DNA of 5,940 bases, taken from a virus (Duplodnaviria > Heunggongvirae > Uroviricota > Caudoviricetes). The notes beneath the pieces were generated by a model, which did not search any database, was not told the origin of the DNA, and saw only the letters and a program-made list of their open reading frames with translations. The stretch lies in the IMG/VR virus record IMGVR_UViG_2778261394_000001, positions 1 through 5,940 of that record; one strand, written 5' to 3'. Positions 1 through 5,940 of this stretch are shown piece by piece; within the stretch, counting starts at the first letter, position 1; each line of letters begins with the position of its first letter. The position numbers were made by a program, and so were the translations under genes.

Positions 1-1052
1 TCGTTGGATTCTTCGCTGAACCAGCAGGTCGCATCCACGATATAGCCGTTTGTTTTCAGCTCACGGAATTTGGCATTGATGCCGTCAACGATGTCGCGAA
101 TCAGCGTTGCGGTGATGGGCTTGTCCACCGCCCACATGTGCGCCTCAGCCATCGTGTCGGCCAGCACCTGCGCGGTGCGGGTGTAGTTTTCAAAGAGGAA
201 CAGCGGGTCATCGGAGCAGGTACGGTTACCCCAGAAGCGGAAACCGTCGCGGCGAATCAGCGTTGTGACGCCTGACTCGTTAAGCAGGTCAGCATCGGTG
301 CCGGACTCCTGCAAATCCCAGAATACAGATGCGCTGATGCCGGTAACACCGTTCACCCCGACATTGGACAGCGTTTTATGCCAGCCCTGCTCCTGGTCGA
401 TTTTAGCGCGCAGACCCAGCGCACGGGCGGTGGCATACGCGGTGGCGGTGGTACTGGTGACCGTATCCCATGCGAGGAAATCCGGCCAGATGACCATCAG
501 CTCACGCTGGCTGAAATTCTGACGGTAGGCTTTCACCTCGGAAATAGTTTTACAGCCCCATGCGCTGATATACCCGAAAGCGCGCAGCTTCTGACAGACT
601 GATGCCAGTGCAACAGCCACCTCTTTGGTATCCAGTCCCGGCACGCCGAGAATGCGAGGTTTAACACCGGTTACCGACTCCGCCGCCAGCAGGGCTTTCA
701 GTCCGGTGTACTGACCGTTTTCGTCAGTGGTGCCGATGATATTGGAAACGGTCTGCGCGAGTTTCGTTTCCTCGTCGTCGCCGGTGCCGTCTTCCACGCG
801 CACAACAACGGTGACCGGTTTTGACTGGTCAGCGATGGCCTGCAACGATGCCGCCAGCGTGCCTTTTTTACCGGCCTTTGCAATTGCGCTCTGCACATTG
901 GTAATCAGCACAGGTTTATTGAGGGGGAAGGTTTCCGCATCCGCATCGCTGGCCGTGCAGACCATGCCGACAATGGCAGTGGATACGGTGGAAATGACGC
1001 GGGTGCCGTCGTTAATCTCCAGCACCTGCACGCCGTGATGATAGTCACTCAT
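1..1052 (-). CDS. FI: Contractile tail sheath protein (P2 gpFI family); 3'-partial, C-terminus lies beyond the window start
   Basis: Open minus-strand frame from ATG at 1052..1050 to the window edge, absent from the ORF track because it has no in-window stop. My translation begins MSDYHHGVQVLEINDGTRVISTVSTAIVGMVCTASDADAETFPLNKPVLITNVQ..., which I recognise as the N-terminus of the P2-type tail sheath. A GGAG Shine-Dalgarno lies 8 nt upstream of the ATG. The short plus-strand ORFs in the track over this region are antisense to it. Confidence 0.88.
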   Translation of the reverse strand, partial: MSDYHHGVQVLEINDGTRVISTVSTAIVGMVCTASDADAETFPLNKPVLITNVQSAIAKAGKKGTLAASLQAIADQSKPVTVVVRVEDGTGDDEETKLAQTVSNIIGTTDENGQYTGLKALLAAESVTGVKPRILGVPGLDTKEVAVALASVCQKLRAFGYISAWGCKTISEVKAYRQNFSQRELMVIWPDFLAWDTVTSTTATAYATARALGLRAKIDQEQGWHKTLSNVGVNGVTGISASVFWDLQESGTDADLLNESGVTTLIRRDGFRFWGNRTCSDDPLFLFENYTRTAQVLADTMAEAHMWAVDKPITATLIRDIVDGINAKFRELKTNGYIVDATCWFSEESN

Positions 1053-1074
1053 CCGTTTAACTCCGTGGTTAATG

Positions 1075-1145
1075 GGTGAGTGATATTTTCAGTTGTGCCG
1101 GAGATGTCAGGCTATTTGTCCCTGTTGGCTAAGGGATGACACAAT
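1075..1145 (-). promoter_or_regulatory. Putative P2-type late promoter (Ogr/Delta-activated) for the FI operon, overlapping the 3' end of the invertase gene
   Basis: On the minus strand, TGTGTCATCCCTTAGCCAACA (1141..1123) is an imperfect TGT-N13-ACA dyad about 45 bp upstream of a TATCAC -10-like hexamer (1085..1080), with the FI ATG at 1052. P2 late promoters carry a TGT-N12-ACA element near -55, so the spacing here is one base off and the assignment is tentative. Confidence 0.25.
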
Positions 1146-1705
1146 TTATTCTTTGTCGCTGATGAGGGAAATTTTTTATAGAGCGTGGACAGACCAATAT
1201 CAAAAATCAGTGCCACGCGTTGACGTGACTCCCCTGCAGCCAGCAAACGCCCGGCCTGCTCCCACTCACTCGTGGTGAGTTTAGGACGTCTGCCACCAAT
1301 ACGACCTTTGGCTCTGGCCGCTTCCAGCCCGGCCCGAGTCCGCTCGACAATGAGTTCTCGTTCCATTTCAGCCAGGGCACCCATCACATGAAAGAAAAAA
1401 CGCCCCATCGGCGTGCTGGTATCAATAGCATCTGTCAGGCTGCGAAAATTAACGCCGCGTTCGCGCAGTTCCTCAACCAGAATGACCAGATGCCGCATAC
1501 TACGCCCCAGCCTGTCCAGCTTCCAGACCACCAGAGTGTCACCTGCCGATAGTGTCCTGAGCAGTTTTTTAAGCCCCGGTCTGTCGGACTTAGTGCCACT
1601 GATTTTGTCCTCAAAAATCCGCTCACATCCCGCGCAGTTCAGTGCATTACGTTGCAAATCGGTGTTCTGGTCATTTGTTGACACGCGTACATAGCCAATT
1701 AGCAT
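1112..1705 (-). CDS. pin: Serine DNA invertase of the Din family (Pin/Gin/Hin/Cin-like resolvase-invertase)
   Basis: Track ORF 1112..1750 (minus) contains MLIGYVRVSTNDQNTDLQRNAL...LVVWKLDRLGRSM...GRFFFHVMGALAEMERELIVERT...GRIGGRRPKLT...LSTLYKK, with the catalytic-serine motif (YVRVST) and the C-terminal helix-turn-helix of Gin/Hin/Pin. I place the start at ATG 1705..1703 (MLIGY, 197 aa), which matches known invertase N-termini and has an AGGGGA Shine-Dalgarno 6 nt upstream. The in-frame ATG at 1750 would add 15 non-conserved residues. The stop is TAG at 1114..1112. The gene sits immediately next to a crossover site. Confidence 0.9.
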   Translation of the reverse strand: MLIGYVRVSTNDQNTDLQRNALNCAGCERIFEDKISGTKSDRPGLKKLLRTLSAGDTLVVWKLDRLGRSMRHLVILVEELRERGVNFRSLTDAIDTSTPMGRFFFHVMGALAEMERELIVERTRAGLEAARAKGRIGGRRPKLTTSEWEQAGRLLAAGESRQRVALIFDIGLSTLYKKFPSSATKNKLCHPLANRDK

Positions 1706-1732
1706 GATCAATCCCCTGAATAAAAACCGGGG

Positions 1733-2269
1733 ATGATGCCAGTTAGCCATTATCTCTGCATTTTCATAAACGTTGGTTTGGGAGAAGGTTCGGCATTACC
1801 CGTTGGCGTGCCTGTTCCGTGGCCTTCCGCCACTCCGCCAACAGGCTGGCTGAAATGCAACGGGGCGGCTTTTTCTGCTGAAGAATACCCGGAACTGGCA
1901 AAGGTTTACCCGACAAATAAATTGCCTGATTTACGCGGTGAGTTTATTCGTGGCTGGGATGATGGAAGAGGGATTGATACTAACCGTAGCTTGCTTTCGT
2001 CACAGGGAGATACCATTCGGAATATAACAGGATTTATAAATGAAGTTAAAGGCACCATTGATACAGCAACTTTCAGGTTACAGACTGGTACTGGTGCTTT
2101 TGCCTTAGCATCTCAAGCTACGCGAAATATCTATAATAACCTAGGCACATATGAAACAAAAAATACCCCTTACACAGGATTCAGTTTTGATGCATCCAGG
2201 GTTGTACCAACAGCATCAGAGAATCGCCCTCGAAACATTGCATTTAACTATATCGTGAGAGCAGCATAA
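1733..2269 (+). CDS. Silent alternative tail-fibre C-terminal cassette (Sv'-like receptor-binding module), probably expressed only as a fusion to the H constant region after inversion
   Basis: Track ORF 1733..2269 (178 aa). The frame runs continuously through the crossover site, so codons GLGE at 1775-1786 match GLGE in tail fibre H in the same phase relative to the 2-bp core. Downstream it encodes ...PVPWPSATPPTGWLKCNGAAFSAEEYPELAKVYP...LPDLRGEFIRGWDDGRGID...RPRNIAFNYIVRA, which resembles the phage tail-collar / tail-fibre C-terminal domain family. The ATG at 1733 lies outside the segment and overlaps a hairpin, so it is probably fortuitous and the functional part is about 1775..2266. The stop TAA overlaps the next start (TAATG at 2267-2271). 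Confidence 0.7.
   Translation: MMPVSHYLCIFINVGLGEGSALPVGVPVPWPSATPPTGWLKCNGAAFSAEEYPELAKVYPTNKLPDLRGEFIRGWDDGRGIDTNRSLLSSQGDTIRNITGFINEVKGTIDTATFRLQTGTGAFALASQATRNIYNNLGTYETKNTPYTGFSFDASRVVPTASENRPRNIAFNYIVRAA
1761..1786. repeat. Invertase crossover site (hix/gix/pix-like, 12-2-12 bp) at the invertase-proximal end of the invertible segment
   Basis: Plus strand reads TTTTCATAAACG-TT-GGTTTGGGAGAA. The inner half-site plus core (1773-1787, TTGGTTTGGGAGAAG) is a perfect 15-bp inverted repeat of 3666-3680. The half-site resembles the recalled hix/gix half-site (TTnTCnnAAACC) around a 2-bp core. Confidence 0.75.
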
Positions 2270-2871
2270 TGGATAAAGCAATATTAAATAGTGAGCTTAT
2301 TGCTACAAAGTCGGGGGATATTACCGTTTATAACTATGATAGTGAGACGCAGGAATATATTTCAGCATCAACTGAATATCTTGCCATTGGTGTCGGTATT
2401 CCTGCATATTCCTGTTTAGATGCCCCTGGCACACATAAGGCGGGTTATGCTATCTGTCGTTCTGCAAATTTTAACTCATGGGAATATGTGTCAGACCATC
2501 GCGGTGAAATCGTCTATAACACCGAAACGGGAGACGCCAAAGAAATCACAGCTCCGGGTGATTACCCTGAAAATACAACCACTATCGCCCCGTTAACGCC
2601 ATATGATAAATGGGATGGTGAGAAATGGGTGACGGATACTGAGGCACAGCATAGTGCCGCAGTAGACGCGGCAGAAGCACAGCGCCAGTCACTGATTGAT
2701 GCAGCAATGGCTTCCATTAGTCTGATTCAGCTGAAATTACAGGCCGGACGGAAGTTGACGCAGGCAGAAACAACCAGACTTAACGCTGTGCTGGATTACA
2801 TTGACGCGGTGACGGCAACAGATACCAGCACCGCGCCGGATGTCATCTGGCCTGAACTGCCGGAGGCGTAG
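2269..2871 (+). CDS. Tail fibre assembly chaperone (Tfa/U'-like) cognate to the silent alternative fibre C-terminus
   Basis: Track ORF of 200 aa, translationally coupled to the preceding cassette (TAATG). The C-terminus ...LNAVLDYIDAVTATDTSTAPDVIWPELPEA matches the conserved C-terminal motif of Caudovirales tail-fibre assembly proteins (P2 G and Mu U/U' end in similar ...WPE.P sequences). A GAGAG Shine-Dalgarno precedes the ATG. Confidence 0.8.
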   Translation: MDKAILNSELIATKSGDITVYNYDSETQEYISASTEYLAIGVGIPAYSCLDAPGTHKAGYAICRSANFNSWEYVSDHRGEIVYNTETGDAKEITAPGDYPENTTTIAPLTPYDKWDGEKWVTDTEAQHSAAVDAAEAQRQSLIDAAMASISLIQLKLQAGRKLTQAETTRLNAVLDYIDAVTATDTSTAPDVIWPELPEA

Positions 2872-3286
2872 GCCATTCAATATCTGGCGCACCGGAAGTA
2901 TCGACCAGCACCAGTGCGTCCAGATAATCCAGCCACAAATTATATTGCGCCAGTTCGTCATCTTTCAGACGACCAATAGCGGCTTTACCGGGCCATTGCT
3001 TACTGTTCATGTATTCGTTGGCCTGGTTAATTAGTAGCTGTCTTTCTGATTCAGTAATTTCAATAAGCTCTTCATGCGTGGGTGGAGGAATATCTGCCCA
3101 CGCAGGCATCCCATCATCTCCGGCAATACGGATTTTTCCTTGTGGCGGTTCAGCCATAAACTCACTGATAATATTTTGATTCACCTCCTTTGCATCTGAT
3201 AAATCCCATCCCTCTGATTTATATTTATCAATCATATCCACAGGGAAAAAAGCATTATGCCTTGCGCTATAAACATATTCGTTCAT
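2843..3286 (-). CDS. G: Tail fibre assembly chaperone (P2 gpG / Mu U-like) cognate to the currently expressed fibre C-terminus
   Basis: Track ORF 2843..3295 (minus), whose C-terminus ...YNLWLDYLDALVLVDTSGAPDIEWPTPPAVQAR carries the Tfa C-terminal motif. The track start is a GTG at 3295 with no spacer after an AGG. I prefer ATG 3286..3284 (MNEYVYSARH...), which has a GGGTGA Shine-Dalgarno 5 nt upstream. The gene lies directly downstream of the tail-fibre stop (TAA 3309..3307). Confidence 0.8.
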   Translation of the reverse strand: MNEYVYSARHNAFFPVDMIDKYKSEGWDLSDAKEVNQNIISEFMAEPPQGKIRIAGDDGMPAWADIPPPTHEELIEITESERQLLINQANEYMNSKQWPGKAAIGRLKDDELAQYNLWLDYLDALVLVDTSGAPDIEWPTPPAVQAR

Positions 3287-3306
3287 ATAAATCACCCTGA
3301 ATAAAA

Positions 3307-4506
3307 TTACTCACCAACAGCCCACCAACTGTAATTCATCGATACTGTGGAACTGGTTGATGCAGTTCTGTAAGCGGAATTAAAACCGGTTAATGTTGGG
3401 CCTTCTGCAGTCATCATGAACCCTCGCCCAGCACCTAAAGGCGCACCACCATCACCAGAATGAGTAAGCATGGCGCAGTCCGCTTTTTTGGGGAAAGGGA
3501 TGCTGAATGTAATTCTCATTGTTTGCGTCGATAATGTCGGCGTAACCGCACCACGACCATATTGCAGGATTTTCCCGTTGGGTAATTTCATCCATCCATC
3601 ACCACTGGCAAAAGAGGCCATGTCCGGTATCTGATTTTCCCCTGTCCCCACATCCCGTTTTGCCGCTTCTCCCAAACCAAGGTATGCGAGAAGACCGGCA
3701 ACATCCTTTCCACTCAAATGAGTCAGCGTCTCATCCAGTGGCTGCTTACCTGACAGCGCATTGTTAATGGTGGTACTGAATTTCGGGTCATTGTTAATGG
3801 CTGCGGCAATTTCTTTCAGTGTGTCCAGCGTGGCTGGCGCACCGTTAATCAGAGCGGTAATAGCGGCCTGAACAAACTCAGTGGTCGCAATCCGCGTGGT
3901 GTTATTCCCTGCGGCAGGCGTCGGCGCTTTTGGTTCTCCGGTAAATGTCGGATTATGTTTCTGTGCATACTGGGTATGAGGATCCTGTGCGGCAATGTGG
4001 TTTCTCATCTGGTCATCCACATACAGCCTTAATTCCAGGACTTCATCATCCACGTATTTACGGGTCGCCAGTACCACCGACGGGTCGATTTTCAGCGTAA
4101 TAGCTTCGGTATTCGTGACAACCAGAATCATGCGGATAGTCTGGGTACGACCACTGCCTTCCTGCAACTGCGGTTTGTACGTTTCCGGGCAGTTCGCCAC
4201 CGCAATGAGTACGCCTTCATCATCATAAAGCCCAATCTCACGGATCCAGAATCCGCCCTCGTTCTCAGGGATGATTTGCTCCGCAATAATCTGGCTCTGG
4301 TTGTTCGGGTCAACACTCAGAAGATTCAGCGGCGCGATGCGTTTCTGGTTAATCAGTTTTGTCTGTGCCGGGTCTGGTGTCGGCAAGACACCATTCGCAT
4401 CACCAACGGCCATTTGCGTCAGATTCAGCTTACTGCCGAGCATCGTCGCGTTAGCCAGCCGTGCTGCGCCCTGATTAGTCAGAATGGCGTAGTATTTCAC
4501 TGTCAT
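3307..4506 (-). CDS. H: Tail fibre protein (P2 gpH family): constant N-terminal region (about 4506..3681) fused to the currently in-phase variable C-terminal module (3666..3307)
   Basis: 399-aa ORF. The N-terminal 200-270 residues (...MAVGDANGVLPTPDPAQTKLI...IIAEQIIPENEGGFWIREIGLYDDEGVLIAVANCPETYKPQLQEGSGRTQTIRM...YVDD...NNTTRIATTEFVQAAITALINGAPATLDTLKEIAAAINNDPKFSTTINNALSGKQP) follow the conserved pattern I recall for P2 H and Mu S tail-fibre N-termini. The crossover site falls at codons 276-280 (L-GLGE). The start ATG 4506..4504 overlaps the stop of the upstream gene (ATGA). Confidence 0.88.
   Translation of the reverse strand: MTVKYYAILTNQGAARLANATMLGSKLNLTQMAVGDANGVLPTPDPAQTKLINQKRIAPLNLLSVDPNNQSQIIAEQIIPENEGGFWIREIGLYDDEGVLIAVANCPETYKPQLQEGSGRTQTIRMILVVTNTEAITLKIDPSVVLATRKYVDDEVLELRLYVDDQMRNHIAAQDPHTQYAQKHNPTFTGEPKAPTPAAGNNTTRIATTEFVQAAITALINGAPATLDTLKEIAAAINNDPKFSTTINNALSGKQPLDETLTHLSGKDVAGLLAYLGLGEAAKRDVGTGENQIPDMASFASGDGWMKLPNGKILQYGRGAVTPTLSTQTMRITFSIPFPKKADCAMLTHSGDGGAPLGAGRGFMMTAEGPTLTGFNSAYRTASTSSTVSMNYSWWAVGE
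3667..3692. repeat. Invertase crossover site (hix/gix/pix-like, 12-2-12 bp) inside the tail-fibre gene, at the constant/variable junction
   Basis: Plus strand reads TTCTCCCAAACC-AA-GGTATGCGAGAA. The two half-sites are dyad-symmetric at 10 of 12 positions. 3666-3680 is the exact reverse complement of 1773-1787. Confidence 0.75.
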
Positions 4507-5114
4507 GCGTTTACTCTCAGGTTATCAATTAAATGAATGGCCGAGGCCGGGAAATAATCCCCTCCGACAATAATGGCCTCCGGGGTGTAGGGATAAACCG
4601 TCAGGGCGTCGCCGTGATAGCATCCCGCACCGGCAAAAATGTTGCCGGTTGTACTTAAACTGATAGCCAGTCCCGTCAGATGGCGGCTTGCAGGTTTTGC
4701 ATCAGCAACGAGACGCTCCAGCTCCTGATACATTTCCTCGGTAATACCCTGCTCAAGCACGCCAACAACGATGCGGAACGTCCCTGGCTCCTCGTTGAGC
4801 TGCCACCACTCCCTCACCTCAATCAGATAGCCGAGCGGCTCCACCACACGGCGAATCGCACCAATAGTGCCCTTATGGCAGTGAATGAAATACGCATCGC
4901 GGATAACAGCGCGTTTGGTCGCTTCCGGCCATTTATCATCCCACCTGTCGACCGAAAATGACCACGCCAGCCACGGCAGCAGATTTGCCGGGCAGGTGTC
5001 CGGGTTCCACAGCTCACGAATACTGACCGGTGTTTTTTCAATTTCCGCACAGGCTTTTGCGGCGGCAACTTCAAGCGGTGATGAGCCGGTCGGCAGCAGT
5101 CGCGAATCACTCAT
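4503..5114 (-). CDS. I: Baseplate assembly protein (P2 gpI family, phage tail protein I)
   Basis: 203-aa ORF beginning MSDSRLLPTGSSPLEVAAAKACAEIEKTPVSIRELWNPDTCPANLLPWLAW..., which I recognise as P2 gpI-like. The start ATG 5114..5112 overlaps the end of the upstream J gene by 8 bp (ATGAGTGA), and the stop overlaps the H start. This is the expected position between J and H. Confidence 0.85.
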   Translation of the reverse strand: MSDSRLLPTGSSPLEVAAAKACAEIEKTPVSIRELWNPDTCPANLLPWLAWSFSVDRWDDKWPEATKRAVIRDAYFIHCHKGTIGAIRRVVEPLGYLIEVREWWQLNEEPGTFRIVVGVLEQGITEEMYQELERLVADAKPASRHLTGLAISLSTTGNIFAGAGCYHGDALTVYPYTPEAIIVGGDYFPASAIHLIDNLRVNA

Positions 5115-5940
5115 CCGAGCCTCCGGTCACGACGCGGTATTCGGTACAGAAAGACGCCTGCGTACTGTTGAGCACGATGTCGGCCAGTGGTGCGGCCAGC
5201 TCGACACGCTGCACGCCTTCCACATGCAAAGCGGCATAAATGGCAGACAGACGGATGTCGCGCCCCAGCCGGTGCTGTGCCGTGATATACGCTTCCAGTT
5301 TTTTCACGGCGGCAGCGCGAATGGGTTCGCTTTCGGGACCAGGGTAAAGATACAGCGTGGCGTTTATCTGGTATTCAACGATGGCGGCAGACTGCACGGT
5401 CACACGGTCAGCCACCGGCCTGACGTCCTCACCATTAAGGGCGTTACGCACCACAGCCAGCAGGTCTTCGGATGCGACACCGTTATTTTCACGTGACAGC
5501 ACGGAGATGGTGACGCAGGCAGGAGACGGACTGGTAACAGAGATATCCGCGACACGCCCGTCAGCACTGCGACCATGATACTGATAGGCACCCACCGACC
5601 CGGCGACGCTTAAACCTTCAAAGGCCTGCTGAATACGCAGACGATAATCGGTGTCAGATTCCATCACGGCCGGTGTCGGCGGGAGGGTCGAATCATCTGC
5701 CGGAGTGATAATCAGGCGCGTGGTGTTGTAATTGGCACCAATCACATCAAGGTCATTACCGGCTGCACAGGCCAGCATCACCGCCCGTGCGGCCTCATTC
5801 ACACGCTGACGCCAGATAAGCTCACGATAAGCATTTTCCTCCAGCAGTTTGACGAGAGGTTCGGATTCCAGCGTCAGGGTACGGGCGACCGCCTCCTGCT
5901 GGTCTTCCGGGTAAAGGGAAATCAGTGTCGCCTTGCGTTC
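5107..5940 (-). CDS. J: Baseplate wedge protein (P2 gpJ family, baseplate J-like); 5'-partial, N-terminus lies beyond the window end
   Basis: The track lists 5107..5802 from a GTG, but I translated the same frame up to position 5940 and found no stop (...ERKATLISLYPEDQQEAVARTLTLESEPLVKLLEENAYRELIWRQRVNEAARAVMLACAAGNDLDVIGANYNTTRL...). The gene therefore enters the window already open. The sequence and its position upstream of I fit P2 gpJ. The stop is TGA at 5109..5107. Confidence 0.85.
   Translation of the reverse strand, partial: ERKATLISLYPEDQQEAVARTLTLESEPLVKLLEENAYRELIWRQRVNEAARAVMLACAAGNDLDVIGANYNTTRLIITPADDSTLPPTPAVMESDTDYRLRIQQAFEGLSVAGSVGAYQYHGRSADGRVADISVTSPSPACVTISVLSRENNGVASEDLLAVVRNALNGEDVRPVADRVTVQSAAIVEYQINATLYLYPGPESEPIRAAAVKKLEAYITAQHRLGRDIRLSAIYAALHVEGVQRVELAAPLADIVLNSTQASFCTEYRVVTGGSDE

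Follow-up and report, generated by a model that had tools for sequence, protein, structure and literature searches.

The region analysed here very probably represents a Gin/Pin-type site-specific inversion switch (“P segment”) within the tail-fibre locus of a P2-like (Peduovirus) prophage. Its components are compiled in Table 1. The window, i.e. the whole stretch of 5,940 nucleotides under study, holds nothing at odds with this reading, and the locus is most likely a real and active host-range switch. An initial annotation had postulated a complete inversion module, and the invertase, both crossover sites, two opposed fibre modules and two chaperones are all located where it had placed them. 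The switch between two receptor-binding fibre tips is an already known module, and an ordinary one because it is annotated in published phages and found in hundreds of E. coli genomes.

Table 1. Features of the inversion switch and of the adjoining P2-like tail genes
Feature	Position	Strand	Basis
Tail sheath gene FI, 5' part, cut off by the window edge	3-1052	-	Pfam Phage_sheath_1, Gp18_domIII_N, Phage_sheath_1C
P2 late promoter PF region	1053-1149	-	alignment to annotated P2 features
Gin/Pin-family serine DNA invertase, 197 aa, ATG at 1705	1112-1705	-	Pfam, Gin alignment, blastp
Candidate recombinational enhancer in the invertase 5' coding region	1621-1683	-	Fis-consensus pair
Alternative, presumably unexpressed fibre C-terminal module, Collar domain, ORF of 178 aa	1733-2269	+	Pfam Collar
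Invertase-proximal 26-bp crossover site, TTTTCATAAACG-TT-GGTTTGGGAGAA	1761-1786		repeat search, consensus scan
Tail fibre assembly chaperone for the plus-strand module, 200 aa	2269-2871	+	Pfam Caudo_TAP, E 2e-32
Tail fibre assembly chaperone for the expressed module, 147 aa	2843-3286	-	Pfam Caudo_TAP, E 2e-30
Currently expressed variable C-terminal fibre module, 119 aa	3307-3666	-	Pfam Gp53-like_C, residues 307-398 of 399
Distal 26-bp crossover site, TTCTCCCAAACC-AA-GGTATGCGAGAA, within the fibre gene, encodes the LGLGE junction	3667-3692		repeat search, consensus scan
Constant N-terminal tail fibre part (H equivalent)	3693-4506	-	Pfam Phage_tail_fib, residues 1-150
Baseplate gene I	4503-5114	-	Pfam Tail_P2_I
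Baseplate gene J, runs beyond the window end	5107 to beyond 5940	-	Pfam Baseplate_J

The framework of the window is that of phage P2, with the gene order J-I-H-(G)...FI, the late promoter PF upstream of FI and an identity of 93-98%. Positions 1-1132, where the P2 homology stops, are 97.7% identical to P2, and the corresponding value for positions 4678-5940 is 92.7%. The baseplate genes I and J lie upstream of the fibre gene in the same late operon and, like the sheath gene FI, form the context outside the switch. The PF region was delimited by the P2 reference features (activator site 17555-17583, transcription start 17626); the invertase gene extends with its last codons over the homologue of the activator-binding site at 1121-1149. 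Canonical P2 (NC_001895), which shares J, the N-terminal part of I, FI and the PF promoter with the window at 93-98% identity, indeed carries the single fixed H-G pair that the initial annotation had ascribed to it, namely an H of 669 aa and G, followed by Z/fun at the equivalent position. The inversion module fills this H-G-Z/fun interval, and positions 1133-4677 of the window substitute a shorter fibre, two cassettes and an invertase.

The assignment of the minus-strand gene next to PF as a serine invertase of the Gin/Pin family is based on Pfam matches to Resolvase (E 2e-52, 177 bits) and HTH_7 and on an end-to-end alignment with the Mu Gin structures 3uj3 and 4m6f (E 4e-95; residues 1-182 aligned), in which the GYVRVST and KLDRLGRS motifs correspond. 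The protein is closer to Gin (320 bits) than to gamma-delta resolvase (118 bits), and its identity amounts to 87.8% with PinE of e14, 85% with the Fels-2 invertase and 80.1% with Mu Gin. The active-site serine (Ser9) is present rather than mutated, and Arg7, Asp64, Arg65 and Arg68 are likewise kept, with an intact D-R-x-x-R motif. In this family, whose members depend on Fis and on negative supercoiling, His106 and Met114 are positions of known Fis-independent mutations; both correspond to the wild type here.

An inverted repeat spanning 1761-1787 and 3666-3692 was found independently by a repeat search, with arms that are 81% complementary over 27 nt. We also scanned the window, allowing up to three mismatches, with an invertase-site consensus (TTCTCNNAAACCNNGGTTTNNGAGAA). 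The two 26-bp sites of Table 1 are its only matches, shuffled sequence yielded 0.00 hits (200 shuffles), and no extra crossover sites of a multi-segment shufflon, as in Min or one EPEC locus, were detected at this threshold. The central dinucleotides read TT and AA on the plus strand, so the cores match in inverted orientation, in agreement with the two inverted sites proposed initially. The proximal site is identical to the e14 pin-proximal site at 26/26 positions, the distal site to its e14 counterpart at 23/26. Two positions in the outer half of the proximal site deviate from the consensus, but the identical site is in use in e14, where inversion has been demonstrated experimentally (PMC4272514, PMC12529663). 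The modest complementarity of the arms could suggest a repeat that arose by chance or recombination, with the cassettes representing a duplicated and diverged fibre locus devoid of programmed inversion. The repeat, however, matches the invertase-site consensus, adjoins a Gin/Pin invertase, is placed so that both fibre fusions are in frame, and bounds exact inversions that distinguish two O157:H7 genomes with no other difference across the locus. This extremely improbable origin is refuted by the scan against shuffled sequences and by the exact inversion in O157:H7.

The two O157:H7 strains are EC4115 and TW14359, whose P2-like prophage is related to phage pro483 and carries crossover sites unchanged from those of the window. 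Their loci are identical over 6.5 kb (4.6 kb of which are the flanks compared) except for the exact reverse complement of the 1875 bp between the sites. Both orientations also occur among assemblies of strain ST2747 (H31 versus H49 and H50), and among complete E. coli genomes 207 show the captured and 200 the inverted orientation. The orientation evidence thus stems from near-identical loci, while the window is a single sequence in one orientation; among the best whole-window matches listed, complete E. coli genomes reach at most about 96% identity over the greater part of its length. The concern raised initially that only one orientation might ever be found is answered by these deposited genomes at identical-site loci, the source strain itself being represented by a single sequence.

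It is very unlikely that the window harbors a fossil, i.e. an intact architecture that no longer flips and leaves the fibre fixed as captured, be it due to poor expression of the invertase or to decay of the enhancer or the sites. Such a state would fit the one orientation of the single sequence and its only about 96% identity to the loci with both orientations documented. It would also fit the upstream region of the invertase, as the minus strand from 1706 to 1800 was searched for a sigma-70-like promoter and none was reported. Yet the invertase ORF is not truncated and retains every catalytic residue, both sites are base for base those flanking the EC4115/TW14359 inversion, the candidate Fis sites are conserved, and related host invertases could act in trans (PMC12529663).

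The consequences of inversion for the fibre can be read directly from the window. The minus-strand ORF at 3307-4506 (399 aa) combines a tail-collar fibre N-terminal domain with a gp53-like C-terminal domain, and its constant part of 280 aa, including the junction, is common to both orientations. An exchange simulated at the central dinucleotides leaves the reading frame of the fibre intact, with 399 aa as captured and 440 aa after inversion, and a 440-aa fibre is annotated in TW14359. ORF and junction analysis agree with the proposal that the 119-aa module and the chaperone at 2843-3286 are expressed in the captured orientation. The plus-strand module, or distal cassette, is presumably silent. 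Its ORF starts with an ATG outside the segment, and the 164 codons assigned to it initially are correct when counted from the crossover core at 1775, but the residues that differ, those beyond the shared LGLGE junction, number only 160. Tail-fibre homology of this cassette is evident from its Collar domain and an identity of 69-71% to HK97-type Stf C-termini; the identity to StfE of e14 is 58%. Its hypervariable tip (1966-2224, GC 0.40) lacked a match in DNA comparisons with pro483 and e14, and an exact 40-mer (2041-2080) found none when searched against one genome per species. The same tip is present in an e14-like element (ECOR29) and in a further P2-like prophage (strain HS4).

Each module has its own Tfa chaperone, as supposed, since two Caudo_TAP genes are located directly downstream of their respective modules. 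The start of the plus-strand chaperone gene overlaps the stop of the Collar module (TAATG), its product is 90.5% identical to TfaE of e14, and the opposed chaperone shows 53% identity to TfaP of e14. Both tfa genes overlap tail to tail by 29 nt. A blastp comparison of the fibre and the chaperones with Mu S, U, S' and U' and with P2 G yielded no hits at E < 1e-3, and the cassettes are therefore of the e14/HK97 type and not of the Mu type.

The 5' part of the invertase gene contains a pair of 15-mers, TGTCAACAAATGACC at 1669-1683 and GCGCGGGATGTGAGC at 1621-1635, which were scored against the Fis consensus GNNYRNNWNNYRNNC and whose centres are 48 bp apart. They are centred at nucleotides 30 (6/7) and 78 (7/7) of the gene, scores that refer to a degenerate consensus in homologous coding DNA. 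Mu gin and e14 pinE carry such a pair at the same positions, a conservation that lies within homologous coding sequence. The enhancer of DNA invertases reportedly comprises two Fis sites 48 bp apart, and by homology the stretch from 1621 to 1683 may act as an enhancer.

We propose that invertase dimers would bind both 26-bp sites, possibly assisted by host Fis on the enhancer in the 5' part of the invertase gene, cut them at the central dinucleotide and rotate the strands, thereby inverting the 1.9-kb segment. The constant 280-aa fibre part outside the segment would be transcribed from the P2 late V operon (J-I-H). It would be fused to the 119-aa gp53-like tip in the captured orientation, with co-expression of the chaperone at 2843-3286, and to the 160-aa Collar-domain tip in the inverted orientation, with the chaperone at 2269-2871. 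A lysogenic population would consequently release two kinds of virions that differ in adsorption specificity. That inversion may alter host range and adsorption is suggested by the unrelated tip domains (Collar versus gp53-like_C) and by the analogy with Mu, P1 and carotovoricin.

A role in the lysogen, beside or instead of virion host range, is an unlikely reading of the ORF that starts with the ATG at 1733. Expressed in the lysogen, it would provide a free receptor-binding fragment, of the 178-aa Collar type as captured and of the 137-aa gp53-like type after inversion, which would block the adsorption of other phages as reported for StfE2 of e14. In either orientation the ORF begins with an ATG of its own that lies beyond the invertible segment (178 and 137 aa), and the 137-aa form is 30% identical to StfE2, with the same leader and gp53-like domain. 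StfE2 has been reported to block T2 adsorption (PMC12529663), but that result stems from over-expression and concerns a cryptic prophage, and the relationship between the tips is only distant. On the plus strand, a sigma-70-like match (10/12) at 1678-1705 points into the ORF; it sits, however, in the invertase codons for the conserved catalytic motif and the start and may be a by-product of coding, and a GGGG run abutting the ATG at 1733 gives a poor Shine-Dalgarno spacing. Moreover, the element has the appearance of an intact P2-like phage, and in such a phage the switching of virion host range would suffice to explain the locus. If the lysogen role were true, one inversion would toggle both virion host range and an StfE2-like receptor-masking defence.

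The module has several known relatives. Its architecture, with the constant fibre part outside and alternative C-termini and chaperones between the sites, is that of Mu G, P1 C and e14 P, as originally recognized. The P segment of e14 (PinE), a cryptic prophage of E. coli K-12, has the same layout from the invertase through the distal site: invertase, proximal site, StfE-type Collar module, TfaE, opposed Tfa, gp53-like module and distal site, likewise with a 29-nt tail-to-tail tfa overlap. However, e14 is a defective remnant of lambdoid or Mu-like type, the module of the window resides in a complete P2-type tail cluster, and the constant fibre part is StfP in e14 but a P2-type tail-collar fibre N-terminus here. 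The Collar modules differ in their tips (58% identity overall, no DNA match across 1981-2210), and the gp53-like module and its Tfa have diverged to 30% and 53%. Mu G/Gin and P1 C/Cin share the proposed mechanism and the logic of a constant fibre N-terminus outside and two C-termini with chaperones inside the segment, with the invertase alongside; an enhancer lies within their invertase gene, as it may in the window. Mu nevertheless belongs to a different phage family, its fibre and chaperone proteins are unrelated at the blastp level, and its gix sites match the sites of the window at 17-18 of 26 positions.

The initial annotation had overrated the novelty of a switchable P2 fibre, as such fibres are annotated in pro483, Fels-2 and others and have been described in the literature (PMC4272514, PMC7953296, bioRxiv 10.1101/2024.10.15.618418). 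The best full-length match is Escherichia phage pro483 (NC_028943, Peduovirus), with 96% nucleotide identity over 96% of the window, the same gene order and orientation and an annotated invertase; the tip of the presumably unexpressed module in pro483-type relatives differs from that at 1966-2224. The same invertase is annotated in further P2-like phages besides pro483 and Fels-2. In Fels-2 with Fin (Salmonella) and in the P2-like prophages of EPEC E2348/69, an invertase lies beside an invertible fibre C-terminus as in the window, but the fibre cassettes are different, and at one EPEC locus three repeats with four variants occur instead of two sites. For these prophages, inversion was documented by genome comparison (PMC7953296) and by sequencing and PCR in culture (PMC4272514).

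The use of these results lies mainly in annotation. The switch explains the two prophage forms among genome assemblies, the pseudogene calls that pipelines make for the fibre gene in one orientation, and occasional spurious assembler contigs. Biologically, the locus represents one more instance of bet-hedging on phage host range by a well-understood device, and the tip cassettes shared by P2-like and e14-like elements illustrate the routine mosaicism of receptor-binding proteins.

The window consists of a P2-type tail gene cluster on the minus strand, and its features are compiled in the table. The invertase gene, the two inverted sites and the opposed cassettes, each with its own chaperone, that were described in the initial annotation were all recovered where it had placed them. 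The chaperone genes on opposite strands share 29 nt tail to tail (2843-2871), and the same overlap is found in e14 (tfaP/tfaE), the cryptic prophage of E. coli K-12, and in the P2-like Escherichia phage pro483 (NC_028943). An inverted repeat at 2790-2807 / 2916-2933 stems from the C-terminal LDYxDA motif common to both chaperones. Another one of 17 nt, which pairs the sheath gene (446-462) with the constant part of the fibre (4063-4079; 16/17 complementary), has no evident function and is probably a coincidence, with about 0.05 such pairs expected by chance at the size of the window.

Features of the window and locations of the split fibre gene in two E. coli records
Feature	Coordinates	Strand
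Baseplate J	5107 to beyond 5940	-
Tail protein I	4503-5114	-
Tail fibre, 399 aa	3307-4506	-
Caudo_TAP chaperone, 147 aa, after the fibre gene	2843-3286	-
Caudo_TAP chaperone, 200 aa	2269-2871	+
Collar-domain ORF, 5' of the 200-aa chaperone	1733-2269	+
Resolvase plus HTH_7 protein, 197 aa	1112-1705	-
Tail sheath FI gene	3-1052	-
Split fibre gene, EC4115 stretch	3604-4803	
Split fibre gene, TUM11352 stretch	20283-21482	

A repeat finder, applied independently of the initial annotation, ranked the pair 1761-1787 / 3666-3692 highest among the inverted repeats. The invertase crossover-site consensus (at most 3 mismatches) has exactly two matches in the window, namely 1761-1786 (site 1, invertase-proximal) and 3667-3692 (site 2, inside the fibre gene), and none in 200 shuffles of it; both approaches thus arrive at the two sites proposed before. 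The central dinucleotides on the plus strand are TT in site 1 and AA in site 2, i.e. the cores are identical given the inverted orientation. Site 1 agrees with the pin-proximal site of e14 at 26/26 positions and site 2 with the distal e14 site at 23/26. The inverted repeats of the e14 P segment, which inverts experimentally, read TTGGTTTGGGAGAAGG (PMC12529663), and this sequence recurs within site 1 (16/16) and site 2 (15/16). When inversion was simulated in silico by exchange at the central dinucleotides 1773-1774 and 3679-3680, the fibre ORF was open in either state, with 399 aa in the captured orientation (as sequenced) and 440 aa in the inverted one. The 280-aa prefix common to both forms ends in LGLGE, which is encoded by the crossover site. 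In the captured state, the constant part carries a 119-aa gp53-like tip and is followed by the chaperone at 2843-3286; in the inverted state, it carries a 160-aa Collar-domain tip, followed by the chaperone at 2269-2871. The parts list, the family membership of invertase and sites, and the preservation of the reading frame are established.

Both orientations occur naturally at loci with identical sites. The prophage is located at corresponding positions in the O157:H7 genomes EC4115 and TW14359, whose sole difference over 6537 bp is the 1875 bp between the sites; these are exact reverse complements, and both 26-bp sites of the window are unchanged in either genome. A chance origin of the inverted repeat is ruled out by this exact inversion and by the lack of consensus matches in the shuffles. 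Among all complete E. coli RefSeq genomes, at least 80% of the window length was matched on a single strand in 207 for the captured window and in 200 for its in-silico inverted version. Strain ST2747 has been assembled in either orientation (H31 as opposed to H49 and H50). The deposited phage pro483 is in the captured orientation; of the others, the P2-like phage of O157:H43 T22, S164 and MET_P1_103_31 show a one-strand match of only 68%, as the opposite orientation predicts, and the annotation of T22 confirms it. Coexistence of orientations in cultures has been reported for e14 and two P2-like EPEC prophages (PMC4272514), and genome comparison documented an inverted fibre segment adjoining fin in the P2-like prophage Fels-2 (PMC7953296). 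The proposed interpretation as a tail-fibre switch in a P2-like cluster is borne out by the frame kept both ways and by these near-identical loci in both orientations. That the switch is locked or a fossil in the window's own genome is very improbable, and nothing in the sequence suggests it.

RefSeq splits the captured-orientation fibre gene of EC4115 and TUM11352 into a 'gp53-like domain-containing protein' and an 'incomplete' pseudogene despite an intact 399-codon ORF; the split is an annotation artefact of one switch state. The 88-kb record NZ_CP134387.1, 'plasmid' pMTY11352_3 of E. coli TUM11352, harbors the prophage in captured orientation and the chromosomal genes cmk, aroA, ycaO, focA and pflB, with many chromosomal genes frameshifted; on the chromosome of that assembly the prophage is in inverted orientation. 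The record is probably a spurious contig from a mixed-orientation culture.

Residues 1-182 of the invertase align with the crystal-structure sequences of Mu Gin (E 4e-95). The protein is 88% identical to PinE of e14 and 80% to Gin, and it retains Ser9 and the D64-R65-x-x-R68 motif. Because His106 and Met114, positions of known Fis-independent mutations, are wild type (chains 3uj3 and 4m6f have Val114), the sequence suggests a normal enhancer dependence. Two Fis-consensus 15-mers are located inside the invertase gene, centered at nt 30 and nt 78, and gin and pinE share their positions and 48-bp spacing. Between them are two AT-rich stretches, ATTTG and TAATG, similar to the ATTTA and TAATG reported for the interval separating the two Fis sites in the Hin enhancer (PMC3798978). 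A candidate recombinational enhancer at 1621-1683 is probable. On the minus strand, a hairpin resembling a terminator (1725-1744; consensus match only) directly precedes the invertase start and could shield the gene from late read-through.

The invertase-proximal cassette might have an StfE2-like role, with the ORF from ATG 1733 expressed in the lysogen. This ORF starts outside the segment and reads into the proximal cassette, yielding 178 aa in the captured and 137 aa in the inverted state, and the shorter form is a homologue of e14 StfE2 (30% identical), which is reported to block T2 adsorption with the P segment inverted (PMC12529663). A sigma-70-like match at 1678-1705 on the plus strand (TTGACA-16-TAGCAT, 10/12; consensus match only) points into the ORF, but it falls in constrained codons of the invertase start region and the ribosome-binding context is poor, and we regard such expression as unlikely.

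The surroundings of the tail-fibre switch are those of P2, with 97.7% identity at 1-1132 (FI and PF promoter) and 92.7% at 4678-5940 (J and start of I); alignment of the window to P2 revealed no close counterpart of 1133-4677. The equivalent P2 interval comprises the last part of I, H (669 aa), G and the Z/fun conversion gene, so that the switch occupies the known Z/fun hotspot, where according to a survey invertases are frequent and adjacent genes inverted (bioRxiv 10.1101/2024.10.15.618418). Homology to P2 breaks off at 1132, midway through the homologue of the PF activator-binding site. The last ~13 invertase codons (1112-1149 region), which show no conservation with PinE or Gin, overlap this site. 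The break at 1132 marks the left boundary of the inserted module, and the right one is near 4678 inside gene I.

TfaE, StfE and TfaP of e14 are 90.5%, 58% and 53% identical to their counterparts in the window, and blastp of the fibre and chaperones against Mu S, U, S' and U' gave no match; judged from these comparisons, the module is e14-like and not Mu-like. The unexpressed module has an AT-rich tip (1966-2224; GC 0.40) that is without match in pro483 or e14. Tips 100% identical to it occur in ECOR29, within an e14-like element, and in E. coli HS4, within a different P2-like prophage that has the tip on the expressed side. Among phages, the C-termini of HK97-type side tail fibres are closest to it (69-71%). 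This distribution indicates cassette exchange between invertase-bearing fibre loci, and it is ordinary shuffling of receptor-binding domain cassettes.

The tail-fibre inversion device is already known, annotated and widespread. In the manner of Gin and Hin, invertase dimers on both sites would synapse with the Fis-bound enhancer on supercoiled DNA, and cleavage by Ser9 at the central dinucleotide would be followed by strand exchange through subunit rotation. On the model of Mu, P1 and carotovoricin, each tip would confer an adsorption specificity of its own, and a lysogenic culture would therefore release a mixed population.
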